From: Planctomycetota bacterium
Lineage (GTDB): Bacteria; Planctomycetota; Phycisphaerae; SM23-33
Direction: 5' to 3'
Assembly (NCBI GenBank): GCA_016235825.1
Contig: JACRIL010000102.1
Location: 751-64,750, forward strand
Length of the DNA stretch: 64,000 bases
Positions 1-47,954 of the stretch are shown piece by piece. A program made the position numbers and the translations under genes. The first letter of the stretch is position 1. Every line of letters starts with the position of its first letter. The notes under the pieces are model-generated. The model saw nothing but the letters and a program-made list of their open reading frames with translations. It had not been told where the DNA came from and made no database searches.

Positions 1-292
1 GAATGATCTGGTCGGGCAGCAATTGCTTGTATCGGAAGGACTCGCCCATGTAACGCGGAGTGATGTAGACGAGATTTCCGACCCTGCAACTGATATTTCC
101 GCCCGCGGAATCCGACAGGTGCCTGTCATAGATAAGGCCGCCGATCTCCAGGATGGTGTTGCGGGGATTCTTCAGGCTGTGTCTGCACACCGCGCAGCTC
201 CCTGGCCGGGAAGGAATGGAGTTGGCGATCACCCGACGGACCACGTCCTCGATGAGATTTTGATTCATTGGATTGTTATTACTGGTTGTCAT
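1..292 (-). CDS. class II aldolase/adducin-family protein (FucA/MtnB-like), 5' part; runs off window start
   Basis: Minus-strand ATG at 292 preceded by GGAGAT RBS. Translation MTTSNNNPMNQNLIEDVVRRVIANS...SAGGNISCRVGNLVYITPRYMGE matches the N-terminal fold and GNxS(V/C)R motif of class II aldolases. Open to position 1 (partial). Confidence 0.7.
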   Translation of the reverse strand, partial: MTTSNNNPMNQNLIEDVVRRVIANSIPSRPGSCAVCRHSLKNPRNTILEIGGLIYDRHLSDSAGGNISCRVGNLVYITPRYMGESFRYKQLLPDQII

Positions 293-303
293 GTTTATCT
301 CCA

Positions 304-1617
304 TCATTTCAGGTCGAAGAGCTTTACCTGCCGGCCCTTCGTGTCTCCCCACAGGTCATAAGCGGCCTTGACCTCGGGTGAACTGTCCGCCATTTTCGCG
401 TAAGGAACGCCCTTAACCGCGGCGTCGATCACCTGCCGCATCGCCTTGGCGCCCAGGGTCGGGCCCATGGGGTGGCCGTGGATCGCTCCTCCGCATCCGA
501 TGATGCAGTCGATGCCCAGGTCCTCGACGACGGAATGCACGTTGCCGTTGTTGATGCCGCCGCCGGGCATGGGGAACGAGCGTTTGATGCTGCCGAACTC
601 GCAGGTCAGCGCGTTGGCGATCAACATGTGTTTTTCTCTGAAGAAATTGAATTTGCCGTAGGGGGAGGGATACACGACGATGTCCGCTCCGGCCAACCTG
701 GCCAGCTTTCCAAGGACCAGGTGCGAGCTCAGGCCGGAATAATGGGACTCGTAGAGCACGCCCGCGAAATCCAGGTGGGCAAGGATGGGCACGTTGATCT
801 CGGGGTCGTCGGCCAGGCTTTGCAGGACGGAATACCCGGCGGTCAGGAAGTTCAGCATGACCGCGTTGACGCCCATTTTGACCGCATTTTTCGCGTTCCG
901 GATGGCTTCCGTCGCGTTATTCGTCACATTCACCGTGAAAAGGGTGTGCTCGCCGGTCTCCCGAAATACCTTTTCCTCAGCCTTCATGTACAGCTCGACC
1001 CTTTTTGCCATTGGGCAGAATGGCGGATCCGCGATCAGCTCGTCGTCCTTGATAATGTCGACGCCGCCCAAAGCCGCCTGATAGAACAGTTTCGCTCCCA
1101 CCTCGGGCGTATATCCCGTGCACGGCTTGATCATGTTGTTCAGAAGCGGGCGACCTTGCACGCCTAAAATCTTTCGCACCCCTTCAACGCCGAACTTCGG
1201 GCCTTTGAACCCTTTCATGAAATAATCCGAAAATTTGAGGTCGAGCAGTTTCAGCCTGCCGCACATGGAGATGTTCCCGATGACCGTCGAGAGCAGCATG
1301 GGGATCTGGGAGCCGAAATTGACCTCCGGGTAAGCGACCTGCAGGACAAAGGACCTGCTTTCGACGCCTTTGGGGAGTTCGAACTCGTAGGCGGGCACTT
1401 CCAGGACGCTCACGACCTTGCCGCAGTACTTTTTCCTGATCTCGGCGGTTTCCTCCGGAACCTGGACCCATGTGCCCGTGGTCTGTTCCACGGCGAGGGC
1501 CGCCGCGAAAACATTGATATCCGTCGCAGGCGGCACTTCCACCAGGTAGGTCGCAATGGTGTAGTCGCCTTTTGAGGCCGTTTCAGGTGAAATGAAGAAC
1601 TGATCCAGGATTCCCAT
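304..1617 (-). CDS. RuBisCO large-subunit family protein, probable form IV RuBisCO-like protein (RLP)
   Basis: Carries the GGVDIIKDDE carbamylation-lysine motif, CGGAIHGHPMG (cf. GGGTLGHPWG) and MIKPCTGY (cf. TIKPKLGL; Lys177 equivalent replaced by Cys, typical of RLPs). Start chosen at the internal Met MGILDQ with an AAGGAAAG RBS, just downstream of the stop of the preceding gene. Confidence 0.85.
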   Translation of the reverse strand: MGILDQFFISPETASKGDYTIATYLVEVPPATDINVFAAALAVEQTTGTWVQVPEETAEIRKKYCGKVVSVLEVPAYEFELPKGVESRSFVLQVAYPEVNFGSQIPMLLSTVIGNISMCGRLKLLDLKFSDYFMKGFKGPKFGVEGVRKILGVQGRPLLNNMIKPCTGYTPEVGAKLFYQAALGGVDIIKDDELIADPPFCPMAKRVELYMKAEEKVFRETGEHTLFTVNVTNNATEAIRNAKNAVKMGVNAVMLNFLTAGYSVLQSLADDPEINVPILAHLDFAGVLYESHYSGLSSHLVLGKLARLAGADIVVYPSPYGKFNFFREKHMLIANALTCEFGSIKRSFPMPGGGINNGNVHSVVEDLGIDCIIGCGGAIHGHPMGPTLGAKAMRQVIDAAVKGVPYAKMADSSPEVKAAYDLWGDTKGRQVKLFDLK

Positions 1618-1648
1618 CGTTACTTTCCTTCTATCATGATGAACATTG

Positions 1649-2632
1649 TTATTTACAGATGGCCTCGCGCAGAAGCCTTGACGATTCCGTCGCATCGCCC
1701 TTTCGGATGACCTCGGCGATTCTGTCCAGCCCCATTTTCTCGAGCAGGCCCCTCAGGCCGTTGACCCAGGCGATGGATTCCTCGACCGCCCGCAGGCCGT
1801 TCTCCCGGTAGGGAAAGATGTCCAATGTGTAGTAATCGTCGTAACCCGTCCGATCGAGCCAGTACAGCATCTCGAGCGCCTCGATGGTGTGGACGGACCC
1901 GAACATCATGTCGTCGTCCCAGTCGCCGTAATTGTCGTTGATGTGGATGTAAAAAAGCCTTTTGCGCCCGCCGCTGTTGACCATCGCCACGGCTTCAGCG
2001 GGGTTTTCCTGTGCCGCCGAGGAATGTCCGCTGTCTATCAGGATTCCGACGTTGTCCCTGCCGATGGTGTCGACCAGCAGGACCGTGCGTGGCGCGTTGT
2101 TCGTGAAGATGTGCGTGCGCGGCTCTTTCTGCTTGTATTCCACGCAGATCTTGACGTCCTTCCTGTGGTCCGCGCACTGCCGGACGCCTTCGATGATCTG
2201 CTCCCACGCTTCGAGGTAATCGGCCTGGAAGGCATAATCGTATCCGTCCTGCCCGAGCCAGACGTCGACCTTGTCGCAGCCGACCCGCGCCGCCATGTCC
2301 ATGGACTTTTTAACCTCATCCGCGGCGGCCCTGCGGATCGACGCGTCCTTCGAAGTGAAGCTTCCTTTCCCCCATTTGGCTTGAGTCCAGAGGTCCGGCA
2401 CCATCATCGAAACCGCCAGCCCGGCGTTCTTCAGGCAGACGCTGATTTCATCAAAGTTTTTTTCGTTGACGTGCCAGTTTCCGACCAGCTCTATTCCCTT
2501 CAACTCCTTCACCTTCGACGCCAGGGCGATCATCTCCGGAACGGTCCTGTTTGTGCCGTAGCCCGACAGACAATACCGGTCTGCGCAAGAGCCGAATGGC
2601 GGGAGACACGCGCCGAACTTCAACTTTTTCAT
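1649..2632 (-). CDS. sugar phosphate isomerase/epimerase (xylose-isomerase-like TIM barrel)
   Basis: Full-length ORF with typical family composition (…IHINDNYGDWDDD…). Start taken at MKKLKF with an AGAGGA RBS. Tandem with and upstream of the RLP gene. Confidence 0.8.
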   Translation of the reverse strand: MKKLKFGACLPPFGSCADRYCLSGYGTNRTVPEMIALASKVKELKGIELVGNWHVNEKNFDEISVCLKNAGLAVSMMVPDLWTQAKWGKGSFTSKDASIRRAAADEVKKSMDMAARVGCDKVDVWLGQDGYDYAFQADYLEAWEQIIEGVRQCADHRKDVKICVEYKQKEPRTHIFTNNAPRTVLLVDTIGRDNVGILIDSGHSSAAQENPAEAVAMVNSGGRKRLFYIHINDNYGDWDDDMMFGSVHTIEALEMLYWLDRTGYDDYYTLDIFPYRENGLRAVEESIAWVNGLRGLLEKMGLDRIAEVIRKGDATESSRLLREAICK

Positions 2633-2839
2633 GCCTGTCCTCTTTGAATGTTTATTAAAAAAAGTGCAGAATTCTTTATGAATGATGAATGGCACATATC
2701 GCCAGCAGAATTGTGATTATCTCAAAGACGGCCGGAAATTCAAGCATAATTCGTTTTCCCTTGTTCATTTTCCCGGTTCTGCCGCTCCGAATTCGGCTGA
2801 GGCCTTGCCCGGCCCGGCCTGACCGGTGATAATCAGATT

Positions 2840-4030
2840 GTGAGCGAGGAGCGCCTTTTTATCGGGCTGTACAGCGGGCCTGCCGCCGACGGGATAGACG
2901 CGGCCCTGGCGTCCGTCGTCGGCGCCGGCGAGGCGATATCGGTCAGGCAGGTTTTGGCTATTCACCACGAATTGCCAGATCAGGCCCGCAGATGGGTCCT
3001 GATGTTCGGCGCCGGTCCGCGCGAACCCATGCCAAACCAGGGTCAGGCCGGCTCGCTGGGCCCGTCGGGCGTGGCGGTGGGTCTTGCCATGCTCGACCGC
3101 GACCTGGGCCAGGCATTCGCGTCGGCCGCCGAGGAACTGCTGGCCGCCGCTGACGTGCAGGCACAGGACGTCTCGGCCGTCGGCATGAGCGGCCAGGCCA
3201 TCGCGCACATCCCGCCCGACATATCCCGCCCGACGGGCGCGGGCCTGGAACTCGGCTGCCCGGCCATCGTGGCAAGAAAGATCGCCAGGCCGGTCGTCGC
3301 GGAATTTTCCAAATGCGACATCGCCGCAGGCGGACAGGGCGGGCCGATCTGTGCCTGGGCCGACTGGATACTCATGCGGCACGAGACGCTCAGCCGGGCC
3401 GTCGTCCATTTGGGCGGCATCGCCTCGCTGACCTTCGTGCCCGCCGCCGCACAGGCCTGCGATGTCGTGGCATGGGACGTCGGGCCGGGCACCTGCCTGC
3501 TGGACGACCTGGCCCACAAGCTGTTCAACAGGCCCTTCGACCACGACGGCGGCATCGCCTCGGCCGGCAAGGTCAACCCAGCCCTGCTCAACGAAATGAT
3601 GTCGCATCCTTACTTCCAGCTTCCGCCGCCCAAGACCACCAGCCGCAACGAATGGGGCGCATCGCACGTCTGGCGGGTGCTCAACGCCGCCCAAAAGCAC
3701 GCCTGCGACGGGGCCGATCTGCTGGCCACCGTAGCCGAATGTTCGGCGATGCTGATCGCAAAGGCCCTGGCCGGCCTGACCGAAAGGCCGCACGAGATAA
3801 TCCTCTCCGGCGGCGGGGCCATGAACATTTCGCTGGCGGGAAAAATCAGAAAGCTCATGTCCCCGTGCAGCACTTACACGGTCGAGCGATACGGTTGTGG
3901 CATCAGGTCGTACCGGGCCGTGTGCATGGCCGTCCTGGCCGCGGCAAGGCTCGACGGCATTCAGATATCCTGCCCCGCCGCCACAGGCTCGCCTGTCCCG
4001 GCAACCCTCGGTTCACTCACCCTGCCATGA
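2840..4030 (+). CDS. anmK: anhydro-N-acetylmuramic acid kinase
   Basis: GTG start. N-terminal LFIGLYSGPAADGIDAAL (cf. AnmK MSGTSxDGIDxAL) and C-terminal SGGGAMN motif. Confidence 0.85.
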   Translation: MSEERLFIGLYSGPAADGIDAALASVVGAGEAISVRQVLAIHHELPDQARRWVLMFGAGPREPMPNQGQAGSLGPSGVAVGLAMLDRDLGQAFASAAEELLAAADVQAQDVSAVGMSGQAIAHIPPDISRPTGAGLELGCPAIVARKIARPVVAEFSKCDIAAGGQGGPICAWADWILMRHETLSRAVVHLGGIASLTFVPAAAQACDVVAWDVGPGTCLLDDLAHKLFNRPFDHDGGIASAGKVNPALLNEMMSHPYFQLPPPKTTSRNEWGASHVWRVLNAAQKHACDGADLLATVAECSAMLIAKALAGLTERPHEIILSGGGAMNISLAGKIRKLMSPCSTYTVERYGCGIRSYRAVCMAVLAAARLDGIQISCPAATGSPVPATLGSLTLP

Positions 4031-4080
4031 TGATGCTTGTCGCAAATGGTCGACGACCGGAAGGCGGTTGATTTTCCCGG

Positions 4081-4192
4081 CACAACTGTTTTCAGCCCGC
4101 AGGGCGGCTGAAAGTAGCCCCGTCCGTAGCGCAGCGAAGGGCGGGGAAAAGGTTGCGCCGAGTTCAGAGTCCCTTGCGGGCGATTGAAATCG
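4081..4192. repeat. dispersed structured repeat, family C (small GCCCGCAGGGC hairpin + TGAAAGTAGCC + CCCCGTCC…GGGCGGGG hairpin + CCCTTGCGGGCGATTGAA)
   Basis: Homologous copies seen at 11681..11765 and 17360..17475, plus an inverted copy at 17476..17570. Related modules at 28290..28440 and 32195..32395. The CCCTTGCGGGCGATTGAA tail also appears near 20925. Confidence 0.7.
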
Positions 4193-4317
4193 GCATCATT
4201 CCCAAACCTTGTCCGGATCGAACCGCACGCCGTGCCGTTCGAGGAACTTCGAGGAATTCATCTTCAAAGGAAACAACCTTGTGATGGCCTGAATGGGATT
4301 CGTGGTATAATATCCTC

Positions 4318-4746
4318 ATGTCCCGGAGGCGAAAGATAACCTGGCTTGTCGTCCTGCTGGTCCTGGCCGGCGGCTCCGGCGGTTATTGCTGGTACTGGCG
4401 GTCCACCGCCGTCGACCGCAAGGTCCGCCAACTTGTCTACGAAGCCGCAGGATACCCGGACACAAGGACAGAAAGAATCCTCAGGAAAATGAAACTGGAT
4501 TTCCTGATCCGCGAAAAGCCAAAATCCAGAAGAGATGATGGAATGATGTTTTGGGAAGAGAGCGTTATAGTCAAGGAAATTGAAGCTATCGGTATTGCTG
4601 CCACACCAGAACTCCTTTCTATGCTTAAAGACGAGAATAACGATATACGCTATAAGGCTGCCGAATTCCTCGGTCGGATCAGAGACGCAAGGTCGATTGA
4701 ACCCTTGATACAGATACTGCAGACAGAACATGATTTAAAAGTTTGA
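4318..4746 (+). CDS. HEAT-repeat (PBS-lyase-type) protein, N-terminal part with TM anchor; ends at in-frame TGA
   Basis: N-terminal hydrophobic helix followed by HEAT-like repeats. Low-GC region. Same reading frame as the 4789..5415 ORF. Confidence 0.6.
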   Translation: MSRRRKITWLVVLLVLAGGSGGYCWYWRSTAVDRKVRQLVYEAAGYPDTRTERILRKMKLDFLIREKPKSRRDDGMMFWEESVIVKEIEAIGIAATPELLSMLKDENNDIRYKAAEFLGRIRDARSIEPLIQILQTEHDLKV

Positions 4747-4788
4747 AGATTTTTACCTTACGTTCTTAGTTGGTTTGGGGACAAAAGA

Positions 4789-5415
4789 GTGGTAGATCCG
4801 CTGATTATGGCAATGCAGAAGGATTCAGATTCAGAGGTTCGTTGCCACTCAGCTATCGCCCTCGCTAAACTTGGCGACAAAAGGGCGGTAGACCCGCTGA
4901 TCCGGGCAATGCGGAATGATTCAGATTCACAAGTACGTTGGTATTCAATTATTGCCCTTGATGAACTTGGTGACAAAAGAGCGGCTGTACCGTTGATAGA
5001 GATATTGCAGAAAAATGAAATAGGGTATGTCCGACGACATGCAGCTGAAGTCCTTGGGAAACTGGGCGACACAAGAGCATTAGAACCACTGATTGAGGCA
5101 ATGCAGAAGGATGCTGATAGGAATGTCCGATATGCTTCGGTAACAGCTCTTGGCAAACTGGGTGACAAAAAAGCTTTTGAGCCTCTCATGCAAGCTTTGG
5201 CAAAGGATAGGGATGAAGATCATTTTATTCAAGGATACGCGGCAGTCGCCCTTGGCGAACTTGGCGATCCTCGCGCATTAAATGCAGTTGAAGACGCATA
5301 TAAAAATGATTTTGACAAGACTTCGCATCAATTCTACGAGGCAGCGATAGCGAAGCTCAAGTCCGCCGCGACGAGGCCGGGGGAGGTTGGCACGCGGCCG
5401 GCGGGAAAACTATAA
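4789..5415 (+). CDS. HEAT-repeat protein, C-terminal continuation (same frame as 4318..4746)
   Basis: Five tandem repeats of the type AxxALGKLGDKRAVxPLIxAMxxDxDxxVR. Its 'start' is a GTG inside a repeat unit, 14 codons after the TGA. Confidence 0.6.
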   Translation: MVDPLIMAMQKDSDSEVRCHSAIALAKLGDKRAVDPLIRAMRNDSDSQVRWYSIIALDELGDKRAAVPLIEILQKNEIGYVRRHAAEVLGKLGDTRALEPLIEAMQKDADRNVRYASVTALGKLGDKKAFEPLMQALAKDRDEDHFIQGYAAVALGELGDPRALNAVEDAYKNDFDKTSHQFYEAAIAKLKSAATRPGEVGTRPAGKL

Positions 5416-5557
5416 TTCAGCAGATGGCCGGTTCAGGCAGGAACAATTCGAGTTCCTGCAGCAGCATGAGATTATCCGCGATCTGTCGAGCTACGGCACA
5501 TCGTGCGGGCGTCCATTCGTCAGGAGACCGCGGTTCTTCAAACCGCCTGATCGTGAA

Positions 5558-5665
5558 AGGAATGACATGAACGAATCGCCACAGAATGCAATGAAGAAGC
5601 TGAGGCTCAGCGGTATGAGCCGGACGCTGGATGTCCGGTCCAGTGTCGCCGAGCGGATCAAAACC
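5558..5665 (+). pseudogene. possible IS21-family IstB N-terminal remnant (35-codon ORF)
   Basis: AAAGGAA RBS 5 nt before the ATG. Peptide MNESPQNAMKKLRLSGMSRTLDV resembles the IstB N-terminus (…LKxLRLSGMxxxL…). Truncated by a stop after 35 codons. Adjacent to a low-GC island. Confidence 0.3.
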
Positions 5666-5685
5666 AGCCAATAGTTGTGGTTTTC

Positions 5686-6309
5686 TCAAAGCCCGACGAA
5701 GTTCCGCATGATTTGCAGGCCGGCCGACTGGCTTTTTTCGGGGTGAAACTGCGTGGCGAAGAGATTGCCCCTGCAAATCGAGGACGTGAAATTCAGGCCG
5801 TATTCCGTTTTCGTGCATACGACCGGCTCATCCCGCGGCACGACGTAATAGCTGTGGCAGAAATAGACGTACTGGCCGTCTTCCAGCCCGGCAAGAAATG
5901 GGCACGAGCCGTTCCATGATATCCGGTTCCAGCCCATATGAGGCACGGCAAGCCTTTGGCCGACCAGGCTGGAGAAATCAAAACGCACGACCTGCCCCGG
6001 AATGATGCCAAGCCCTGCGTGCCTGCCGTCCTCGAAAGAAACGTCGAACAGCAGTTGCAGACCCAGGCAGATGCCCAGAAACGGCGCGCCGCCGGAGGCC
6101 GCCTGAATCAGAGGCTTGTCGAACCCGGCCGATCGCAGCCGCCCGATCGCGTCGCGAAATGCACCGACGCCGGGCAGGACGATCTTTTCCGCCCCGGCCA
6201 GGCCGGCCGGCGAGGCGATTATCCGCGCATCGCCCCCGGCCCGCTGAAGCGCCTTCTGCACGCTTCGCAGATTGCCCATCCCGTAATCTATTATCGCTAT
6301 CCACGACAT
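5686..6309 (-). CDS. hisH: imidazole glycerol phosphate synthase, glutamine amidotransferase subunit
   Basis: MSWIAIIDYGMGNLRSV…GICLGLQLL…HMGWN…FHPEKS class I glutamine amidotransferase triad motifs. Confidence 0.9.
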   Translation of the reverse strand: MSWIAIIDYGMGNLRSVQKALQRAGGDARIIASPAGLAGAEKIVLPGVGAFRDAIGRLRSAGFDKPLIQAASGGAPFLGICLGLQLLFDVSFEDGRHAGLGIIPGQVVRFDFSSLVGQRLAVPHMGWNRISWNGSCPFLAGLEDGQYVYFCHSYYVVPRDEPVVCTKTEYGLNFTSSICRGNLFATQFHPEKSQSAGLQIMRNFVGL

Positions 6310-6414
6310 CTGAATTGCCCGGACCATTCCACAAACTCAAGGCCCACGGGTTTGATCGCCCGTGGGCCTGTGATGCGTTTTAAATTTTGCGACTTCGCGC
6401 CAACTCAGCGATGT

Positions 6415-7083
6415 CTATTTAATGACGACAATCTCGACCCTTCGGTTCTTGGACTTGTTGGCCTTGTCCAGCGGGTGATGCTCGCCCATGCCTATGGTCT
6501 CGATCCGGTCGGCCGCAACGCCCTGGCCGATGAGATACCGTGAAACAGCCATCGCGCGGTTAGCCGACAGGTCAAGGTTGTCCTGCCAGAGGTTCTTGGT
6601 CCTCTTTATCGGGTCGTTGTCGGTATGGCCGTAGATCAGGACGGTCTTGCCGGCGAATTTGCCTTTCAGATCGGCGGCGATCTTGTCGAGCTCCTTCTTG
6701 CCGGCGGCGGTCAGAGCGGCCTGGCCGGAGGAGAACAGCACGTCGCCCTCGAGACTCCGCTGCACGCCTGCGGCATGAGGCGACCAGCCTGTAGTGCCTT
6801 CATCCGGTCCCAGCGGTTTGGGTCCTTCGGGGGGTTTGTTCGCCAGTTGCGCCTTCAGGCTGGTATTCTCCGCCTGCAAACCGTCCCTTTCGGCCGTCGC
6901 GTTCAGAAGATCCTTTTTTGCGGCGATAAACTGATTCTCCATATTGGTCTTCGCGACAGACATCTTGTTATGATTCTCGGTCATTGCCGCGAGGTCCTTC
7001 TTTTCCTGCTCGCAGCAGCCTATCGAAGACAGGACGTTAACCGCCAACATCAGACCGGCACAGACCAGCGCCAACCGACTCAT
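6415..7083 (-). CDS. OmpA-family lipoprotein with coiled-coil linker
   Basis: Signal peptide with lipobox (LSSIGC), coiled-coil region, C-terminal OmpA-like peptidoglycan-binding domain (…NLDLSANRAMAVSRYL…GMGEHHP…NRRVEIV). Confidence 0.8.
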   Translation of the reverse strand: MSRLALVCAGLMLAVNVLSSIGCCEQEKKDLAAMTENHNKMSVAKTNMENQFIAAKKDLLNATAERDGLQAENTSLKAQLANKPPEGPKPLGPDEGTTGWSPHAAGVQRSLEGDVLFSSGQAALTAAGKKELDKIAADLKGKFAGKTVLIYGHTDNDPIKRTKNLWQDNLDLSANRAMAVSRYLIGQGVAADRIETIGMGEHHPLDKANKSKNRRVEIVVIK

Positions 7084-7235
7084 GAGTCGCTCCTTCTCGC
7101 AATATGCGATAAAATGCCTCGCTTCCCTGAACCGGAAAGCATGGATACCCCGGGATTATAACCACTTCATCGGCAAGACTAAAAGATTTTTTTAATGAGT
7201 TTGCGTAATGCCCGGCCGGGAAAAGCCGCTTGCAA

Positions 7236-7264
7236 TTGACCGGCGGCGGGGCGGCATGTAGAAT
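7236..7264 (+). promoter_or_regulatory. sigma70-like promoter (TTGACC-17-TAGAAT) upstream of hisI-trkH-trkA
   Basis: TTGACC at 7236..7241, 17-nt spacer, TAGAAT at 7259..7264. Confidence 0.45.
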
Positions 7265-7333
7265 CCGCGAGCGTCTGAAACCCCGCCGGCCGGCGCGATG
7301 CCGCGGCGGATCAACCGGCACAGGAGCAATCAG

Positions 7334-7735
7334 GTGAGCGATTTATCTGAAACAATTAAAGGACTCAAGTACGACTCGTCGGGTCTGATACCGGCGATCA
7401 TCGTCGATCACAGGACCAAACAGGTCCTGATGATGGCATGGATGAACCAGGCCAGCCTGTTGGACACGATCAACAGGGGCAAGACGCATTTCTGGTCGCG
7501 AAGCCGGCAGAAATACTGGATGAAGGGCGAGGAATCCGGCCACACGCAGGACGTCAAGGCGGTCTTCACCGACTGCGACATGGACGCCCTTGTCATCGAG
7601 GTCGAGCAGCACGGTGCGGCCTGCCACGAGGGCTACTGGTCGTGCTTCTACCGCAGGCTGACGCCGGACGGCCGGCTGGAGATAACAGGCAAGCCCCTGT
7701 TCGACCCCAAGGCCGTTTACAAGAATAAAAAGTAA
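7334..7735 (+). CDS. hisI: phosphoribosyl-AMP cyclohydrolase
   Basis: …WSRSRQKYWMKGEESGH…DCDMDALVIEVEQ…CHEGYWSCFYR HisI motifs. GTG start at 7334 with an AGGAGC RBS preferred over the upstream ATG at 7298 (same frame). Confidence 0.8.
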   Translation: MSDLSETIKGLKYDSSGLIPAIIVDHRTKQVLMMAWMNQASLLDTINRGKTHFWSRSRQKYWMKGEESGHTQDVKAVFTDCDMDALVIEVEQHGAACHEGYWSCFYRRLTPDGRLEITGKPLFDPKAVYKNKK

Positions 7736-7755
7736 GGCATCGGGATTTTTCAACC

Positions 7756-9672
7756 ATGTTCGCCTGGAACACGATAACACAGACATTTCGAGGCTCGCGA
7801 TGGCCGGTCATCGCGATGGATATGCTGGTTCTGTGCCTGAGCCTTGCGGCCGGCGCGGTTCTTGTCCTTTACCACGGCTTTCCCGGCCCCAATCCGCCGG
7901 TGGACCGCGACATGTTGGAATGGGCCGGCGGGATCATCGTGTTTTTCTACGTCGCCGACCGCATGGGCCGGCTGGCGATGGCCAGGCGAAGAAGGGAATA
8001 TTTCCGCGAGAACTGGGCCGATTACGCCCTGATTGCCCTTGCGGCGCTGGTGCTGATGATCGGCTGGCGTTTTTACGGCAACATCATATCGGCCGGCGCG
8101 CTCTACCTTATAATAACCCAGGCCTACATGCTGATCTCACTGATTCTTCAGGCCCTGAGCGTCAACCTTCGCGTCGCCGGCAAGATATCCAGTCCGATTC
8201 TGCTGCTGTTCGCCAGTTTCGCCGCCCTCTGCTTTGCCGGCGCGGGCCTGCTGATGCTTCCGGCCTCCATCGCGGGCAACTACGCGACGTGGCATTTCCC
8301 GGAGGCGCTTTTCACCGCAGTCAGCGCCGCCTGCGTAACCGGCCTGACTGTCACGGAAACCGGCAGCCGGTTCACGCCGTTCGGACAGGCGGTAATACTG
8401 ATACTCATCCAGTTGGGCGGGCTGGGCATAATGCTGTTCGGCACGATACTGGCGATGCTGGCGGGCAAGCGCATGTCGCTTCGCGGGGCCGACAACCTCA
8501 ACCAGATGCTCGGAGCCGAAGGCGTGGGACAGGTCGCGCGGGTGGGCGCGTTCATCATTGGGGTTACGCTGGCCATCGAGGCCGTCGGGGCGGTGCTGAT
8601 GTATCCGATGTTCGCCGCCCCGCAGGGCGCGCCCGGAATGGAACAGACCCCCGGTCCGGCACGGGCCGCCTGGGACAGCATATTCCACAGCGTCTCGGCC
8701 TTCTGCAACGCCGGATTCAGCACTTACGACGACGGCATCATGACCGGGGCCAGGGGCAGCCGCGTCGTCTGGTCGGAGGCCCTGCGGGATCACTGGCAGG
8801 TGCTGGGCGTGCTGGCCCCGCTGATCGTCCTGGGCGGGCTGGGGTTCCCGGTCCTTCAGGACGTCGGCAGATACTTCAAATCGCTCGCGTCCCGCTGTAT
8901 TCACTCGCTGAGGACAAAGACGGTCGGCAACAGCGCCGATCTGAGCCGGCCGGGCCTGTCGCTCCACTCGAACCTGGCGATAATGACCAGCCTGATACTT
9001 ATTGTGCTTGGGGCGGTGGTGTTCATGCTGGTCGAGCCGGGCCGGACCAGGCCGCGAACGTCGGAAGGCAACATGAGGCCCGACCCGCAGACCGCCTGGA
9101 TGCAGATGAGCGGCGGGGAACGGCTTCAGGCCGCGTATTTCCAATCCGTCTCCGCCAGGACCGCCGGTTTCAACACCATCGACTGCTCGGCCCTGTCAAA
9201 CGGCAGCAAGCTGTGGATGTGCTTCCTCATGGTGATCGGGGCCTGTCCGGCCGGCACGGGAGGCGGCATCAAGACCGTAACGTTCGCCATACTGATGCTG
9301 ATGATCTGGTCGGCCCTGAGGGGCAGAAACGAGGTCGAAGCGTACAAGCGGGCGATTCCGCAGGACGCCATCAGGCACGCGACCGTCCTGGGCCTGGTGT
9401 ACCTGCTGACGGCCGGAATTGTAACGATGGTGATGTGCACCATAATGTCAAAGGACAGCCTGATCGATGTTTTGTTCGAGTCGTGCAGCGCGCTGGGCAC
9501 GGTGGGGCTGTCAACCGGGATATCCATGCGGCTGGAGATGGCCGGCGAGTTCGTCCTGACGGCCGCCATGTTCCTCGGACGCATAGGGCCGATGGCCCTG
9601 GTGCTGGCCATTGCCGGACAGGCGGCAAAAGCGAAGTATGAATATCCCTGCCAAAATGTTATCATAGGATGA
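7756..9672 (+). CDS. trkH: TrkH/KtrB-family potassium uptake membrane protein
   Basis: Polytopic membrane protein with repeated selectivity-filter-like motifs (…TAGFNT…, …TGGGIKTVTF…). Confidence 0.8.
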   Translation: MFAWNTITQTFRGSRWPVIAMDMLVLCLSLAAGAVLVLYHGFPGPNPPVDRDMLEWAGGIIVFFYVADRMGRLAMARRRREYFRENWADYALIALAALVLMIGWRFYGNIISAGALYLIITQAYMLISLILQALSVNLRVAGKISSPILLLFASFAALCFAGAGLLMLPASIAGNYATWHFPEALFTAVSAACVTGLTVTETGSRFTPFGQAVILILIQLGGLGIMLFGTILAMLAGKRMSLRGADNLNQMLGAEGVGQVARVGAFIIGVTLAIEAVGAVLMYPMFAAPQGAPGMEQTPGPARAAWDSIFHSVSAFCNAGFSTYDDGIMTGARGSRVVWSEALRDHWQVLGVLAPLIVLGGLGFPVLQDVGRYFKSLASRCIHSLRTKTVGNSADLSRPGLSLHSNLAIMTSLILIVLGAVVFMLVEPGRTRPRTSEGNMRPDPQTAWMQMSGGERLQAAYFQSVSARTAGFNTIDCSALSNGSKLWMCFLMVIGACPAGTGGGIKTVTFAILMLMIWSALRGRNEVEAYKRAIPQDAIRHATVLGLVYLLTAGIVTMVMCTIMSKDSLIDVLFESCSALGTVGLSTGISMRLEMAGEFVLTAAMFLGRIGPMALVLAIAGQAAKAKYEYPCQNVIIG

Positions 9673-9675
9673 ATT

Positions 9676-10362
9676 ATGGAACGATTCGCAGTCATAGGAT
9701 TGGGCAGATTCGGCTCGCGGCTGGCGGAACTTCTTTCCATGGGCGGCGCGGAAGTGCTCGCCGTCGATAAAGAGCGGCCGCTGGTGGAAGAAGTGCGCGA
9801 CCGCGTTACGCTGGCCATCTGCATGGACAGCACCGACGAGGAGGCCATTCGCGCGCAGGGGATCGACAAGGTCGACGCCGCGATAGTCGGCATAGGCGAT
9901 AATTTCGAGGCCGCCGTGCTGACCACGGTTATCCTCAAGCAACTCGAGGTGCCGAGGATCATCGTCCGCGCCACCACCGACGTCCGGGCCGCCATCCTCC
10001 GCCGGATCGGGGCAGACGACATCGTCAATCCCGAGAACGAGTCGGCCGAACGCTGGCAAAGCAAACTGGCCGCCCCGGGCCTCATAGATCGCAGGGAACT
10101 GGCCGAGGGGTTCAGCCAGGTTCAGATCGCCGCGCCGGAAAGCTTCGTCGGCAAAACGCTCGAACAGCTTGAATTGCGCAAGAAATACCGGGTGAACATC
10201 ACAGCCATAAAAAGGCAGACCGAGGAAACCGGGTCCAAAGGCGCAAAAAAGACCAGAGATACCTTCCTATCCGTGCCGATGCCCGACGTCGTGATTCAAT
10301 CAGGCGATGTGCTGTTTATTATGGGCGCCGACGATGCCATCGCCGCACTGCCGGCGGAATAA
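9676..10362 (+). CDS. trkA: TrkA/KtrA potassium uptake regulatory protein (NAD-binding RCK domain)
   Basis: FAVIGLGRFGSRLA Rossmann motif plus C-terminal TrkA-C domain. 4 nt after trkH. Confidence 0.85.
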   Translation: MERFAVIGLGRFGSRLAELLSMGGAEVLAVDKERPLVEEVRDRVTLAICMDSTDEEAIRAQGIDKVDAAIVGIGDNFEAAVLTTVILKQLEVPRIIVRATTDVRAAILRRIGADDIVNPENESAERWQSKLAAPGLIDRRELAEGFSQVQIAAPESFVGKTLEQLELRKKYRVNITAIKRQTEETGSKGAKKTRDTFLSVPMPDVVIQSGDVLFIMGADDAIAALPAE

Positions 10363-10413
10363 AAAAGATTCATCCGACGTTCAAATGTTGCGAGAATTGG
10401 AGGTCACGCTGAT

Positions 10414-11625
10414 ATGCTATACCGCGTGCAACAACCGGGGAAGTCAATGTGGCATATCATTCCAATCCTTTTGAGTTTGGGATATTGTCTTACCGGATGT
10501 ACCGAGCCGGGCGATACTACGCCAAAAATGGACCTTCCGGACACGATCTTGGAGGCATGCCGACAGGAAAATCCTGATTTGCTCAAGCCGTATTTTGTCG
10601 GGCCGGAGGATTATGTTTTTCAAACAGAAGACAGTTGGTATGTCCCGCCGTCGACACCTGCGAATTCTGAGAAGGCGGCAGCGATCTGGACGGATGAGGT
10701 ACGAAAGGCAACCCTGCAATCTTTTAAGAAAGTATGCGACGACCTGAAGGATACCGGGATCGACCTAAAAAACGCCCGGATAACGCAGGCCAAAGTATAC
10801 TCTTCAAATGTATTTAATTTTCTTGCCGACTACAGCAAGGCGTTTCTTATAGGCGATATTTCTTGCGAGTTGGGCAACCCTCCATTCAAACGCTTTGTCG
10901 CGACTTTTGATGATTGGCTTGTAACTGAATTAAAACAGAATGATAAAGCCGCCTCGATATTCTGGATGGTTCGCAAGACGCCGCGCGGCCCCAGGCTTCT
11001 GGGTGGCGTATATCATTATTTCAACGGCCCAATTGATCGAGGCTTCGTTATGGGGACGACGATAGAGGAATATGGGAAAATAGGGTGGTATGGTTTACAG
11101 GAAGATTATCTCGGAATAGCCAGGATGATCGCTCAACGTGGAATTCCGATGGGGTTTTTCAGGATTGTCCAGCAGACCGGAGTGATCGATTGGGCCGAAA
11201 CTGAGCTGTCATATATTGTTTTGGAATTCCCCCAATCTTTACATGATGACCGCATCGACTCAATCTGGATTGAGGCAGGATACGTTGATGGCCGGATCGA
11301 ATTGACGGAAACGGGGCCGGGTACCCTTGTCTTCCAGGGAAGCCAAATGTTGCTGGATCTGGATATGGAATTCAAAGTGTCCATTACGCTCGATATAAAA
11401 AAAGAAGATGCCGAGAAGCCGCTGAATCAATTCTCGTCTATTCAGGCAAAAGACCGTTACAACCTCCGCAACTTCAAAAAGATATGCGATTCGCCGTTAA
11501 AATTCCGATCCCCTTCAAGAGAGTATATAAGTTATGGCAAGAAGGGAGGAATCATTTTTATCGACGAAAAAGCTTATAGCGTGGAGCTGGATGGCATGAT
11601 TTACAAGCGGGAAGACAAAGAATGA
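10414..11625 (+). CDS. hypothetical lipoprotein (low-GC island)
   Basis: Signal peptide with lipobox (…LSLGYCLTGC). Markedly lower GC than flanking DNA. No recognisable domain. Confidence 0.6.
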   Translation: MLYRVQQPGKSMWHIIPILLSLGYCLTGCTEPGDTTPKMDLPDTILEACRQENPDLLKPYFVGPEDYVFQTEDSWYVPPSTPANSEKAAAIWTDEVRKATLQSFKKVCDDLKDTGIDLKNARITQAKVYSSNVFNFLADYSKAFLIGDISCELGNPPFKRFVATFDDWLVTELKQNDKAASIFWMVRKTPRGPRLLGGVYHYFNGPIDRGFVMGTTIEEYGKIGWYGLQEDYLGIARMIAQRGIPMGFFRIVQQTGVIDWAETELSYIVLEFPQSLHDDRIDSIWIEAGYVDGRIELTETGPGTLVFQGSQMLLDLDMEFKVSITLDIKKEDAEKPLNQFSSIQAKDRYNLRNFKKICDSPLKFRSPSREYISYGKKGGIIFIDEKAYSVELDGMIYKREDKE

Positions 11626-11777
11626 GCTTTGCGGTTCTCGCCTAAAAAATATTTGATTGGGTATAGATCAGATTCTACAGGGCGTTTGAAAGTAGCACGG
11701 CCCCTGAGCGAAGCAGAACGGGGGAATGGTTGCACCAGGTTCTGAGTTCTTTGCGGATTCAGCGTAACCATGTTTAA

Positions 11778-11925
11778 GGCCCGCAGGGCCGGCAGATAGT
11801 AGCCCCGGGTGCAGCGAGTCCGCCGTCAGGCGGACGAAGCGCAACCCGGGGTATGATGGCCATTAAATGGATGCCTGAATATTCGCTCGCGACACGGCAG
11901 AAGAACCTGTATCAAGAAACACCCA
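11778..11925. repeat. dispersed structured repeat, family B (GGCCCGCAGGGCCGG + AGATAGTAGCC + CCCGGG…hairpin…CCCGGGG + conserved tail)
   Basis: About 150 bp homologous to 27913..28063 over its whole length. Immediately downstream of the family C copy at 11681..11765. Confidence 0.7.
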
Positions 11926-12273
11926 GCCAATGATTTTGGTCGGGGCATTTACCCATTAGGGTGGTAAACCATACTCGGTCAAGACTTGTCCGGCGAAGTC
12001 AGGTTAAGGTGTTATTTTTCTCTACAATCGACTAATTTTTCATCGAAAGATATTGGCCTGTGCGTTCCGGGATTTGGGATCATCTGCCGTGGCGTGATCG
12101 CACCTTTTGAAATGCTCTGAACGGCGACTATTCCCCGGGTTCCGCTGGGGCAACTGACCTGGCCGCCGCATCGCCATATCGGATGCCTCCGGGATGATTC
12201 GATCTTGCCAAGAGGGAAAAATGCGGGTAAAGACAATAGTTGAGCGGTTTTTCCGCATGACTGGAGCATACAG

Positions 12274-19502: not shown

Positions 19503-20603
19503 ATGAGCGAGAAGAAAACTACCGGCGCGGTCATCGGCTGCGGCTCGATAAGCAAGATGCACCTGGGCTGCATGAAGGAGGCCGGATATCGCATCGGCGT
19601 GCTGTGCGACGTGGACGCCGGCCGGGCCGAGCAGATGAAACGTGACTTCGGCGACGAGCGGACCAGAGTCGTCACCAGTTTTGAAGAGGCCATCAGGGAC
19701 GCCGACGTGGACGTTGTGTCCGTCCTGACGCCGCCGGTGTTTCACGCCGGGCAGACCGTGGCCGCGCTCAACGCCGGAAAGTTCGTCTATTGCGAAAAGC
19801 CGGTGGTGCGAACCCTCAAGGAGTTCGACGCCATCTTCGCGGCCGAAAAATCGTCCGGCAAAGGCGCCTACTTCACGCCCGGCCGGATGCGAGGCGGCGA
19901 CACCCCGACCGTCCGGCAGTACGTCAACGACGGAGAATTCGGCGACATTTATCGCGTCGAGAGCAAGCACTGGCGGATGCGCGGCCGCAGCGGAGTGGAC
20001 ACGGGGCCGCACTGGTTCGCCGACAGCCAAAAGGCACTGGGCGGCATACTCGCCGACATGGGGCTGTACTTCATGGACCGGGCGTTCCACCTGACCGGCT
20101 GGCCGAAGATAACATCCGTCTCGGCCGTTACGTTCCGGCCGTTCCCCTACGACCTGCCGAGCGATGTCCCTTACGACGTGGAGGAGCACGCCCTGATTAT
20201 GGCCCGCACGGAAGGCAAGCTCACCTTCACCTTCGAGCTGGCGAACATGGCATATTTCGACGACTGGACCACCAACACCCTCATGATGCTGGGCAACAAG
20301 GGCGGCATGCACCTGCGGTCCGGCAGGACGGAGGAGTTCCGCTTCCTCACCGAAAAAGGCGCCCCCGGCAGATACATCGAGCACCGCATCAACTGGAAGG
20401 AAGGAAGAAAGACCGACACCATCATCTACGAGGAACTCGCCGCCGCTGTCCGCGGCACGGGCCAGGTCAAAACCGCCACCAGCAGCCGGGAGGCCCTGGT
20501 CCTGCACGAGGTAATGGCCATGACGTACATGTCCTCGCACAATCGCCGCGAAATCCGGCCCGAAGATCTCGACCAAAACGCCAATATCTTTATAAAGGCG
20601 TAA
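19503..20603 (+). CDS. Gfo/Idh/MocA-family oxidoreductase
   Basis: N-terminal AVIGCGSISKMH Rossmann motif and EKP motif (CEKPVV). Confidence 0.85.
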   Translation: MSEKKTTGAVIGCGSISKMHLGCMKEAGYRIGVLCDVDAGRAEQMKRDFGDERTRVVTSFEEAIRDADVDVVSVLTPPVFHAGQTVAALNAGKFVYCEKPVVRTLKEFDAIFAAEKSSGKGAYFTPGRMRGGDTPTVRQYVNDGEFGDIYRVESKHWRMRGRSGVDTGPHWFADSQKALGGILADMGLYFMDRAFHLTGWPKITSVSAVTFRPFPYDLPSDVPYDVEEHALIMARTEGKLTFTFELANMAYFDDWTTNTLMMLGNKGGMHLRSGRTEEFRFLTEKGAPGRYIEHRINWKEGRKTDTIIYEELAAAVRGTGQVKTATSSREALVLHEVMAMTYMSSHNRREIRPEDLDQNANIFIKA

Positions 20604-20643
20604 ACCAGTCACATATTTAGCACAAAATCAAGGGTGAGATATT

Positions 20644-20892
20644 ATGGAATGGACCGCGGAGATTATGACGGATCCTGCTCGGGATCATGAATTACACGTG
20701 GAACTCAGGCAAGATGAACTGTATCGCGCCCGTATCTATCAGGATGAACAAGGCAAAATACAATTGCAATTGTACGATGGAAAACCTGGAATATTACCTG
20801 TGGAATGGCTGACAGGAATTATTGATGGATTCAAAAATGATTTGCGGACCTCCGGCCAAAGCCGCATCAATAAAAATGGCGCCAATCCATGA
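20644..20892 (+). CDS. hypothetical protein (low-GC island)
   Basis: AAGGGTGAG RBS. 82 aa. No recognisable domain. Confidence 0.5.
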   Translation: MEWTAEIMTDPARDHELHVELRQDELYRARIYQDEQGKIQLQLYDGKPGILPVEWLTGIIDGFKNDLRTSGQSRINKNGANP

Positions 20893-20971
20893 TGCTTTTA
20901 CAAGTTAATGGATGCGAACTTTCTGGAGCCCTTTGGGCGATTGAAATGTATGGAAAGGAAAGGGATAAATA

Positions 20972-21808
20972 ATGGCTGGACAATCCACACAGATAGCGTT
21001 GTTTAAGGGCAAAGAAATCAGAAAAACAATTCACAATAATGAATGGTGGTTTTCGATAATTGATATTGTTGAGGCATTAACGGATTCAGGACGGCCTCGC
21101 AAATATTGGAGCGATTTGAAGAAAAAGCTCGTAAAAGAGGGCTATTCTGAAGTGTCCGAAAAAATCGGACAGTTGAAATTGATTTCGCCGGATGGGAAAT
21201 CCAGAACAACGGATTGTGCGGATACTGAGACGGTTTTCCGGATAATCCAGACAATACCCTCTCCCAAAGCCGAGCCGTTCAAGCGCTGGCTGGCCAAGGT
21301 CGGCTATGAACGCATTGCGGAAATAGAAGACCCTGAACTGGCGACCAAACGTGCCCGCGCGATATACAAGGCCAAGGGATATCCGGACGACTGGATCGAA
21401 AAGCGCATGCGGTCCATCGCCATTCGCGAGGAATTGACGGACGAATGGAAAAATCGGGGCGTCGCCGAGCAAAAAGATTACGCCATTCTCACAGCCGAAA
21501 TATCCAAGGCCGCTTTCGGCGTAACACCTTCGGAATACAAGAGGCTCAAAGGCCTCGAACGCCAGAATCTGCGCGACCACATGAACGACCTTGAGCTGAT
21601 TTTTTCAATGTTGGGCGAGGCCGCCACTACCGAAATCACCCGTAACCGCGACACGCAGGGATTTGATGAAAATAAGCGGGCCGCGGTAGATGGCGGTTCA
21701 GTCGCGGGAAATGCCAGAAAAGAACTGGAGGCAAAGTCAGGTAAAAAAGTGGTCTCCCGCCAAAATTATCTGCCGGAAAAAGCGGCAAAGAGGCTTCCGA
21801 AAAAATAA
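20972..21808 (+). CDS. DinD-like DNA-damage-inducible protein (Bro-N-like N-terminal domain)
   Basis: N-terminal …EIRKTIHNNEWWFSIIDIVEAL…YWSDLKKKL and central …RDHMNDLELIFSMLGEAAT recall E. coli DinD (…EIRHYGTEGQEFWSARELAPLL…, …LDHMGSTELAANLF…). Low GC, AAGGGA RBS. Confidence 0.7.
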   Translation: MAGQSTQIALFKGKEIRKTIHNNEWWFSIIDIVEALTDSGRPRKYWSDLKKKLVKEGYSEVSEKIGQLKLISPDGKSRTTDCADTETVFRIIQTIPSPKAEPFKRWLAKVGYERIAEIEDPELATKRARAIYKAKGYPDDWIEKRMRSIAIREELTDEWKNRGVAEQKDYAILTAEISKAAFGVTPSEYKRLKGLERQNLRDHMNDLELIFSMLGEAATTEITRNRDTQGFDENKRAAVDGGSVAGNARKELEAKSGKKVVSRQNYLPEKAAKRLPKK

Positions 21809-22101
21809 AACGGCTCATGGCGGCGGTCCATGCGTTGTCCAAGTCGGGGACTTGCGGAAATGGAAGACAAGTATTATGAGATCATGAACGATGCCGCTTC
21901 GGCCATGGATGCCGGCAATCTGACCGCCGCGCTGGGCATGCTCGACCAGCTCGTCGCCGCAAAGAGCTACGGCCCGCTTGCTCATCTTTTCCGCGCGGAG
22001 ATTCTTCTTCGGGCGGGTGGCGTGGCCGGTTTTATGCCAAATGGACTTTTTTCAACAGACTTGGGGTGTAAAAACAACGGATGAAAAGGTATTATTCGGC
22101 C

Positions 22102-42390: not shown

Positions 42391-43170
42391 ATGCCCAGAA
42401 GCGCCGCACAAGCCGTCGCCCGCCGCCGCGAGCTGGTGAATATACTGGCCCGCAGGCAGAGCCTCAGCATCGCCGATGCGGCGGGCCGTTTCGGCGTCAA
42501 CGGGATGACGATCCGGCGGGATATGAAGATGCTTCAGGACTCCGGCGCGGTCCTGCGCTGCTACGGCGGGGCGGTGGCGGCGCAGAGGATCACGTTTGAA
42601 TTCGCCTTCGACGAGCGGCGCCGCAGCCGGCTGGCCGAGAAACGGCGGATCGGCAGGGCGGCAGCCGGGCTGATCGGGGACGGTCAGACCGCTTTTCTCG
42701 ACACGGGCACGACGACGCTGGAGGTCGCGCGGGCCATCGTGGCGCGAGGCATCGCCTGCCGGATAGCGACTAGCAGCCTCGTAATCGCCAGTGAGCTGTG
42801 GGGGCGAGAGCAGATCGAACTGGTTCTTTTGGGCGGACAGGTGCGGCGGGGCAGCCCCGACCTGGTAGGCCCGGGCACGGAATTGATGCTGGACAAGCTG
42901 AGCGCCGATTTCGCCTTTTTGGGCAGCGAAGGCCTGGACGTGGCCCGCGGCAGCTTTGCAGACGATCCTCTGGCGGCGCAGGTGGCAGGCCACATGGCGG
43001 CCAATGCGAAGAAAACGGTCGTGGTCGCCGATCACTCCAAGCTTGGCAAGGTCGGCTCGGTGCAATACCTGCCGGTCGGCGACATGGATGTGCTGGTTAC
43101 CGATAAGGCAGCCCCGGCAGAGATCGTCGCGGCCCTGCGACGAAACAAAGTAAAGGTTGTCGTAGTTTAA
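42391..43170 (+). CDS. DeoR/GlpR-family transcriptional regulator
   Basis: N-terminal HTH (…LSIADAAGRFGVNGMTIRRDM…) plus C-terminal sugar-phosphate-binding domain. Confidence 0.85.
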   Translation: MPRSAAQAVARRRELVNILARRQSLSIADAAGRFGVNGMTIRRDMKMLQDSGAVLRCYGGAVAAQRITFEFAFDERRRSRLAEKRRIGRAAAGLIGDGQTAFLDTGTTTLEVARAIVARGIACRIATSSLVIASELWGREQIELVLLGGQVRRGSPDLVGPGTELMLDKLSADFAFLGSEGLDVARGSFADDPLAAQVAGHMAANAKKTVVVADHSKLGKVGSVQYLPVGDMDVLVTDKAAPAEIVAALRRNKVKVVVV

Positions 43171-43201
43171 AAATTCCAGTTTGACATATCAGGAGCCTTT
43201 T

Positions 43202-46534: not shown

Positions 46535-46544
46535 AGGATGGCAA

Positions 46545-47951: not shown

Positions 47952-47954
47952 CGC

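Follow-up and report, generated by a model that had tools for sequence, protein, structure and literature searches.

At the start of a 64,000-nucleotide stretch from a Planctomycetota bacterium (assembly GCA_016235825.1, contig JACRIL010000102.1, positions 751 to 64,750; hereafter the window), a minus-strand operon encodes a RuBisCO-like protein (RLP) between a xylose-isomerase-like TIM-barrel protein and a member of the class II aldolase/adducin family. We propose, with a probability of roughly 45%, that this RLP epimerizes or isomerizes a ketose phosphate made by a sugar kinase, probably one with a deoxy or apolar tail, and that the class II aldolase-family enzyme cleaves the product. The proposal follows from four features: the enolization machinery and the near-phosphate site of the RLP are intact, its far-phosphate site is apolar, kinases lie beside its homologs, and most of the loci that combine a kinase with an RLP carry no aldolase-family gene. 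RLPs are already known as enolizing enzymes in sugar-phosphate pathways; what is new is an uncharacterized clade placed within an undescribed, rhamnose-like operon architecture. The initial annotation of this locus had suggested a new RLP-dependent carbohydrate pathway, an idea strengthened by orthologous loci in which a rhamnulokinase-family kinase is also encoded.

Open reading frames (ORFs) and Pfam matches confirmed the three minus-strand genes at their originally assigned positions. These are the isomerase-like gene (1649..2632; 327 aa; PF01261, E=1.5e-28), the RLP gene (304..1617; PF00016 and PF02788; MBI5723859.1) and the 5' part of the aldolase-family gene (1..292, 97 codons; MBI5723858.1). 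The RLP coordinates held, whereas the length first given for the protein, 438 aa, has to be corrected to 437 aa. Spacers of 31 nt (isomerase-RLP) and 11 nt (RLP-aldolase), together with the shared strand, define the three genes as an operon. The 207-nt divergent intergenic region 5' of the isomerase gene (2633..2839) is likely to be its promoter region. A sigma-70-like match is present there on the minus strand (2743..2716) and another on the plus strand, no more than in shuffled sequence, and a scan for promoters and terminators returned nothing above chance. Positions 1..5000 contain no Rfam match, hence neither an S-adenosylmethionine (SAM) riboswitch nor any other riboswitch. A 4.8-kb Logan contig (L001), which matches the window with 100% identity over 4345 bp and runs 481 nt beyond its start, completes the aldolase-family gene: the protein is 246 aa long, the gene extends approximately 449 nt past the window start, and the contig stops 32 nt after its stop codon. 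The adjacency of the three genes is more than chance, since the same genes occur in the same order in a Latescibacterota metagenome-assembled genome and a kinase-RLP-aldolase series occurs on a third contig.

The RLP belongs to the RuBisCO large-subunit superfamily, with both Pfam domains above their gathering scores (PF00016, E=2.9e-49, 168.4 bits against a cut-off of 30.1; PF02788, E=1.4e-10, 41.8 against 20.7). Its nearest solved structure is that of Geobacillus kaustophilus MtnW (2oek; 304 bits, roughly 45% identity; solved RLP structures are matched at E=1e-89), with further matches to the MtnW-type structures of B. subtilis (2zvi) and B. cereus (3fk4); a Chlorobium RLP (211 bits) and form III RuBisCOs (approximately 190-200 bits) rank next. 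The NCBIfam ranking agrees with the structural one in placing MtnW models first. We mapped 17 catalytic and substrate-binding positions onto the RLP, in RuBisCO numbering, and obtained the signature E60 T65 W66 N123 K175 C177 K201 D203 E204 H294 L295 V327 K334 P379 G381 G403 G404, where the true RuBisCOs aligned with it have ETWNKKKDEHRHK(A/S)GGG. The RLP is thus identical to true RuBisCOs at 13 of the 17 sites and differs at K177, R295, H327 and S379. Retained are the metal/carbamate triad K201/D203/E204, K175, H294 and the residues that bind the P1 phosphate (T65, G381, G403 and G404). The motifs GGVDIIKDDE and IKPCTG, noted at first inspection, are both present, and the residues place the protein among form IV RLPs, in agreement with the initial annotation, which had pointed to the carbamylated-Lys motif and the Cys at the K177 equivalent. 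This Cys is not a clade marker, because several RLP groups carry Cys177.

R295, H327 and S379 hold the distal phosphate in established RuBisCO structures. In the clade that contains the window RLP these positions have become hydrophobic (R295 to Leu or Met, H327 to Val, S379 to Pro). Since the distal-phosphate residues have been replaced in this way and the near-phosphate site has been kept, the active site points to a substrate that carries one phosphate and has an apolar end. At the same 17 positions, MtnW has G-T-W-K-K-M-K-D-E-H-P-L-S-P-A-G-G; its distal-phosphate positions are likewise changed (Pro, Leu and Pro), and its substrate carries a methylthio tail. Position 123 is Asn in the window RLP and in all of the best 120 homologs, in contrast to Lys in 2oek and in MtnW-like representatives. 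This Lys (Lys98 of the G. kaustophilus protein) is reportedly the catalytic general base of MtnW (Imker et al. 2007); with Asn at that position, the RLP is, judged by its residues, not MtnW. The signature as a whole is common to the best 120 homologs, which are 53-100% identical to the window protein, and Cys177 is invariant among them. RLPs and RuBisCO share Mg2+- and carbamate-assisted enolization of a keto-sugar phosphate beside the phosphorylated carbon, and the window RLP is predicted to be an enolizing isomerase or epimerase that depends on Mg2+ and carbamyl-Lys and has a monophosphorylated keto-sugar as its substrate.

In a neighbor-joining tree, the window RLP and five relatives of 71-72% identity formed a tight clade (A), sister to a Firmicutes-type group (B), with a Chloroflexi/Caldisericota group (C) branching nearby. 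MtnW, Photo-like RLPs, short RLPs and true RuBisCOs were all placed elsewhere. The tree is distance-based and carries no support values, and placement relative to the classical names of form IV clades was made through proxies, namely PDB matches, NCBIfam models and this tree. A word-index search gave 2724 matches at E<=1e-30 among 8000 scored candidates, and each of two public collections holds more than 500 loci, from Firmicutes, Chloroflexi, Caldisericota, Planctomycetes, Latescibacterota and Bathyarchaeota. A scan of JGI metagenomes for close relatives found none above 62% identity.

To describe the genomic context of the clade, we counted neighbors within 6 kb of the RLP gene at approximately 170 loci (80 drawn from GTDB species genomes, 80 from metagenomes at JGI and a few more from exact look-ups), using tblastn with seed proteins and ORF clustering. 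An FGGY-family sugar kinase gene was found at about half of these loci (approximately 85), and ORF clustering placed a kinase directly upstream of the RLP in 43. Most loci with a kinase and an RLP lack a class II aldolase-family gene, so the RLP most simply acts on the product of the kinase. Context A, to which the window locus belongs, includes four further loci. In the Latescibacterota genome (L005), an isomerase (65% identical to that of the window), an FGGY kinase, an RLP (71%; MFH1006735.1) and a class II aldolase-family protein (52%) are encoded together, and the module is flanked by genes for outer-membrane-type proteins. The third contig (L176) carries an FGGY kinase, an RLP and an aldolase, the first and last being 69% and 78% identical to their Latescibacterota counterparts. 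At the remaining two loci, a PfkB kinase gene lies 5 nt upstream of the RLP gene (L086) and the RLP is followed by a His_Phos_1 phosphatase (L175). The context A kinase scores 385 bits against the rhamnulokinase model TIGR02627 (equivalog cut-off 528). The L005 enzyme shares 42-49% identity with annotated rhamnulokinases, and its NCBI name is 'rhamnulokinase family protein'; by homology, the context A kinase is a member of the rhamnulokinase family.

Contexts B and C are more distant. Context C brings together RLPs of 53-57% identity from Chloroflexi, Caldisericota, Tepidanaerobacter and other groups; there the RLP gene adjoins a gene for a xylulokinase-like FGGY kinase, often with a HemL-like class III aminotransferase or saccharopine-dehydrogenase-like gene. 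Context B (56-63% identity; approximately 54 loci in Thermacetogenium, Moorella, Syntrophomonadaceae and Ignavibacteriales) has the order GlpP antiterminator, RLP, PEP_hydrolase-like protein, ComB-type phosphatase, UPF0261 protein and a second PEP_hydrolase-like protein. The families concerned are two PEP_hydrolase-like TIM barrels (PF09370), UPF0261 (PF06792) and a ComB-type 2-phosphosulfolactate phosphatase. Examples of this arrangement, with the same RLP signature as the window, were found in Thermacetogenium phaeum (L002, 9067..15252) and Neomoorella thermoacetica (L004, 7807..15706).

The two partners of the RLP in the window resemble enzymes of neutral-sugar degradation, although neither reaches the cut-off of a named function. 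For the isomerase-like protein, the top NCBIfam scores were 98 bits for xylose isomerase and 68 bits for L-rhamnose isomerase; both fall far short of their cut-offs, and the protein is therefore an equivalog of neither XylA nor RhaI. Among solved structures it was closest to 3ktc, deposited as 'Xylose isomerase' (206 bits), followed at a distance by classical xylose isomerases (approximately 75 bits) and L-rhamnose isomerases (approximately 30 bits). Of the metal-binding and catalytic positions of xylose isomerase, E181, K183, H220, D255 and D257 are kept, E217 is replaced by Asp and D245 by His. The protein is probably a metal-dependent aldose-ketose isomerase or epimerase that acts on a free sugar. 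It had first been read as a sugar-phosphate isomerase, a reading that gives way to its closer similarity to the free-sugar enzymes. Homologs at 52-68% identity are widespread and occur near RhaB-like FGGY kinases, rhaM mutarotases or another RLP; on one contig, the homolog directly adjoins an FGGY gene. A homolog with 66% identity, on a Mahellales metagenome contig (L171), is surrounded by genes for rhaM mutarotases and sugar ABC transporters; positions 5531..9391 of this contig hold two isomerase-family paralogs interleaved with two rhaM genes. This setting is a hint of a deoxy sugar. Several URO-D-like (PF01208) genes lie in the same region, as do two sets of sugar ABC transporter genes.

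The aldolase-family fragment within the window matched PF00596 below the gathering score (E=0.006), and the full-length protein of 246 aa matched it clearly (E=4.3e-29). The zinc ligands of FucA are kept (His135, His137 and the His of 'PKHG'), as is the equivalent of Glu73; the position of FucA Tyr113 is Asp in the window protein and Glu in its orthologs. The highest-scoring NCBIfam model, PRK06357 ('hypothetical protein'), gave 128 bits, with a cut-off of 216. FucA models gave 54-68 bits (cut-offs 250-400), the OtnC model 51 (250) and the MtnB model 45-51 (137), and the AraD model was likewise far below its cut-off. Among characterized or solved proteins, S. pneumoniae FucA and 6btd each matched with 46 bits. 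The latter was deposited as 'Fuculose phosphate aldolase', and we take it to be DrdA, the 5-deoxyribulose-1-phosphate aldolase of B. thuringiensis. The PDB matches also included 2irp, a putative MtnB-like Aquifex protein that has the same Glu73 equivalent. The window protein is probably a Zn-dependent aldolase, with a dehydratase or epimerase role also possible.

Taken together, these assignments suggest a pathway on the plan of L-rhamnose or L-fucose degradation (isomerase, 1-kinase, class II aldolase), with the RLP inserted between kinase and aldolase. The TIM-barrel enzyme would convert a free aldose into the 2-ketose; this aldose is probably a deoxy sugar or rare in some other way. A sugar kinase, in the orthologous loci the rhamnulokinase-family FGGY enzyme, would yield the ketose phosphate. 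The RLP would then enolize this compound by means of carbamylated Lys190, Mg2+ bound to Asp192 and Glu193, Lys164 and His281, and reprotonation would give an epimer or a carbonyl-shifted isomer. The aldolase-family enzyme would cleave that product, presumably to dihydroxyacetone phosphate (DHAP) and an aldehyde.

Several observations weigh against this proposal. The visible part of the window operon contains no kinase gene; in a search for the rhamnulokinase family, none of the best 120 matches came from the window's own contig; and the only FGGY gene in the window lies approximately 46 kb away in another cluster. The kinase that serves the operon may be encoded beyond the window start or elsewhere in the genome, or may be absent. 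For the aldolase-family protein, sequence does not separate aldolase, dehydratase, epimerase and decarboxylase; the first three overlap because Glu73 is shared with 2irp and the Tyr113 position is Asp or Glu. The closest clade comprises only five or six known loci, two of which have other partners (PfkB alone, or His_Phos_1), and clades with the same active-site signature sit with PEP_hydrolase, UPF0261 and ComB genes or with a class III aminotransferase. Finally, the case is built from sequence and synteny: the gene identities, the operon spacing, the active-site residues and the synteny with kinases are observed, and the step order, the enolization, the deoxy or hydrophobic tail of the substrate and the aldol cleavage are inferred from them.

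The proposed pathway shares its logic, and in part its protein families, with rhamnose and fucose degradation (RhaA/RhaI-RhaB-RhaD; FucI-FucK-FucA) and with the DHAP shunt, which consists of DrdK/MtnK, DrdI/MtnA and DrdA/Ald2 (PMC6079011). In common with the rhamnose and fucose systems are a TIM-barrel isomerase encoded in the cluster, a class II (Zn) aldolase-like protein with the His triad and catalytic Glu of FucA and DrdA, and, in the Latescibacterota locus and on the third contig, a kinase of the RhaB/FucK family, which is missing from the visible window operon. The window operon differs from these systems in the inserted RLP, in the Asp or Glu at the Tyr113 position, and in that no partner protein reaches an equivalog cut-off.

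For the RLP step itself, the best mechanistic analogy is probably the DeepYkr reaction, in which a ketose 1-phosphate with an apolar tail is enolized and reprotonated as its carbonyl-shifted isomer. In R. rubrum and R. palustris, the DeepYkr enzyme is a 5-methylthioribulose-1-phosphate 1,3-isomerase of the methylthioadenosine (MTA)-isoprenoid shunt (PMC5893883), and the MtnW and DeepYkr reactions are both described in the literature (PMC5893883, PMC6302742). The window RLP nevertheless belongs to another clade: it occupies a separate branch from the short RLPs in the tree, and no cupin methylsulfurylase was seen near it. A short RLP of approximately 370 aa, 3qfw, matched the window RLP with 122 bits, compared with 237 bits within its own group; we take 3qfw to be R. 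palustris RLP1, and the short RLPs presumably are of the R. palustris/R. rubrum DeepYkr type. With MtnW (the IV-YkrW group), the window RLP has in common the fold, the K175/K201/D203/E204/H294 core, a hydrophobic distal site and an adjacent class II aldolase-family gene. It differs in the Asn at the Lys98 position, in Cys rather than Met at position 177, in keeping K334 and E60 (Ser and Gly in MtnW), and in having sugar-type neighbors instead of methionine-salvage enzymes.

A different assignment of steps would make the locus a module resembling methionine salvage that works on another sugar: the aldolase-family protein would carry out an MtnB-like dehydration of a ketose 1-phosphate to a 2,3-diketo phosphate, the RLP would tautomerize this compound, and a phosphatase would act next. 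We regard this as unlikely, although it is the main contender. MtnW is the nearest characterized and solved relative of the RLP; the Aquifex protein 2irp, with its shared Glu, is among the structural matches of the aldolase-family protein; and phosphatases lie beside related RLPs (ComB-type at approximately 35 loci, His_Phos_1 at one context A locus), echoing the pairing of MtnW with MtnX. In addition, Bacillus MtnB, the pathway partner of MtnW, is itself of the class II aldolase family (PMC6302742). Opposed to this are the MtnB model score, which stays at about a third of its cut-off, the Asn that occupies the Lys98 position throughout the best 120 homologs, and the many aldolase-free kinase-RLP loci, where the RLP evidently needs no upstream dehydratase; this last point fits the preferred reading, that the RLP works on the kinase product directly.

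Chemistry at a carboxyl group, with the RLP as decarboxylase, transcarboxylase or carboxylase of a monophosphorylated keto-sugar or keto-acid, seems to us improbable. Its appeal lies in the active site, which as read from the alignment is essentially that of RuBisCO minus the distal-phosphate pocket, with K177 and three P2-binding residues changed. N123, K334 and its partner E60, which contact the CO2 adduct in RuBisCO, are all kept in addition to K175, K201, D203, E204 and H294, whereas MtnW and Photo-type RLPs lack the former set. Yet K177 is lost, the neighbors are enzymes of neutral sugars, and the annotated loci contain no acid-sugar genes (dehydrogenase, lactonase or DUF1537 kinase). The apiose (OiaX/OiaT) and tetronate (OtnK/OtnI/OtnC) systems resemble the window operon in combining a TIM-barrel protein and a class II aldolase-family protein in a carbohydrate cluster, with an embedded RLP, and the initial annotation had drawn this analogy. 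It does not survive comparison with the models: OxoTetrIsom gave 24 bits (cut-off 325), the OiaX equivalog gave 172 (cut-off 700), OtnC fell short as described above, and no DUF1537 kinase was found at any Pfam-annotated RLP locus, the kinases there being of the FGGY or PfkB families. One specific version, in which the RLP performs true CO2 chemistry on the monophosphorylated, apolar-tailed ketose from the adjacent kinase, is a long shot; if it were correct, the clade would provide a second natural carboxylase-type reaction in the RuBisCO fold, widespread in anaerobes.

Genuine methionine salvage, with the RLP as MtnW and the aldolase-family protein as MtnB, is highly improbable. MtnW is the best NCBIfam match of the RLP and only just misses one cut-off (NF007095, 387.9 bits against 409), JGI labels many of the homologs '2,3-diketo-5-methylthiopentyl-1-phosphate (DK-MTP-1-P) enolase', and a class II aldolase-family gene is adjacent. 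The second MtnW model, TIGR03332, is missed by a wide margin (346.5 against 513.6), and the MtnB score of the neighbor, the Asn at the Lys98 position and the separate position of MtnW in the tree all argue against it. Moreover, MtnA, MtnK, MtnX and MtnD are absent from every Pfam-annotated RLP locus, no SAM riboswitch was found in 1..5000, and the partners are xylose-isomerase-like and rhamnulokinase-family proteins rather than an eIF-2B-type isomerase and an APH-type kinase.

That the protein is a bona fide RuBisCO, as its NCBI name 'ribulose 1,5-bisphosphate carboxylase' and its Pfam RuBisCO_large domains would have it, can be dismissed. The residues do not support the name: replacement of K177 and of the three distal-phosphate residues (K177C, R295L, H327V and S379P) leaves the set of catalytic and substrate-binding residues of forms I-III incomplete and, at the level of the predicted active site, rules out carboxylation of ribulose 1,5-bisphosphate. 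The carboxylase models also remain well short of their cut-offs (form III TIGR03326, 249 against 497; NF003252, 250 against 438; form II NF010002, 120 against 489), and neither a small subunit nor a phosphoribulokinase is encoded among the neighbors within 4 kb, which are the TIM-barrel protein, the aldolase-family protein and an AnmK-family kinase. The test proposed with the initial annotation, that a carboxylase should show all catalytic residues, a small subunit or a phosphoribulokinase, thus goes against a bona fide carboxylase.

RLPs are the main source of ideas on the role of the ancestor of RuBisCO, and only a handful of their reactions are known. Functions of the Moorella- and Planctomycetes-type RLPs were listed as unknown in 2020 (PMC7325909). 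Our literature search found no published function for the clade of the window RLP and no paper that links an RLP with an FGGY kinase, UPF0261, a PEP hydrolase or an operon of this type. The window locus and its Latescibacterota ortholog provide a compact set of three to four genes that can be cloned and directly tested. The carboxylase and DK-MTP-1-P enolase labels now attached to these proteins would mislead metagenome reconstructions toward carbon fixation or methionine salvage.

A second RLP lineage was found in a comparable setting. In an Opitutaceae metagenome-assembled genome (L174, JAQTYQ010000015.1, 5064..13072), genes for an RLP, a rhamnulokinase-like FGGY kinase, an isomerase, E2, E1alpha and E1beta subunits and a DeoC/LacD aldolase lie in what looks like one operon. 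This RLP is only 32% identical to that of the window and keeps K175, K177, N123 and KDDE; the isomerase is 56% identical to its window counterpart, and the kinase is of the same rhamnulokinase-like family. Members of two separate RLP lineages have thus been recruited beside the same isomerase and kinase families, an independent argument that isomerase, kinase and RLP are functionally linked. The two clusters differ downstream, where the Opitutaceae genome has the E1/E2 set and the DeoC/LacD aldolase and the window has the class II aldolase-family gene. An AraC regulator gene lies upstream and divergent in the Opitutaceae cluster, and its E1/E2 proteins are of the acetoin/2-oxoacid-dehydrogenase type. 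The presence of these genes is a hint that a methyl-ketone (acyloin) product is cleaved, and the cluster may represent another undescribed RLP pathway.

Divergent from the window operon is a gene for an AnmK-family kinase (2840..4030, plus strand), which matches PF03702 over its full length. We considered it as the missing kinase and rejected it because it is divergently oriented, matches AnmK models over its full length and does not occur at the orthologous RLP loci; a link to the operon is improbable. Its best score against an NCBIfam AnmK equivalog was 289 bits (cut-off 387), and it falls below every AnmK cut-off.

The distant FGGY gene belongs to a second sugar-type cluster on the plus strand (42391..50489) that includes no RLP. 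It encodes a DeoR regulator, a DeoC/LacD aldolase, a class III aminotransferase, a GFO/IDH/MocA oxidoreductase, an AraA-like isomerase and an 844-aa protein in which an FGGY kinase is fused to an Amidohydro_2 domain. Chloroflexi-type RLPs, too, usually have FGGY kinases and class III aminotransferases as partners. Elsewhere in the window, G+C content falls to 50-55% at 4001..6000, 10001..12000, 20001..22000 and 52001..54000, compared with approximately 60-64% for most of the sequence. The first of these stretches contains HEAT-repeat-like ORFs (4318..5415) and the second a 403-aa ORF of no obvious family (10414..11625); the four may be acquired islands.

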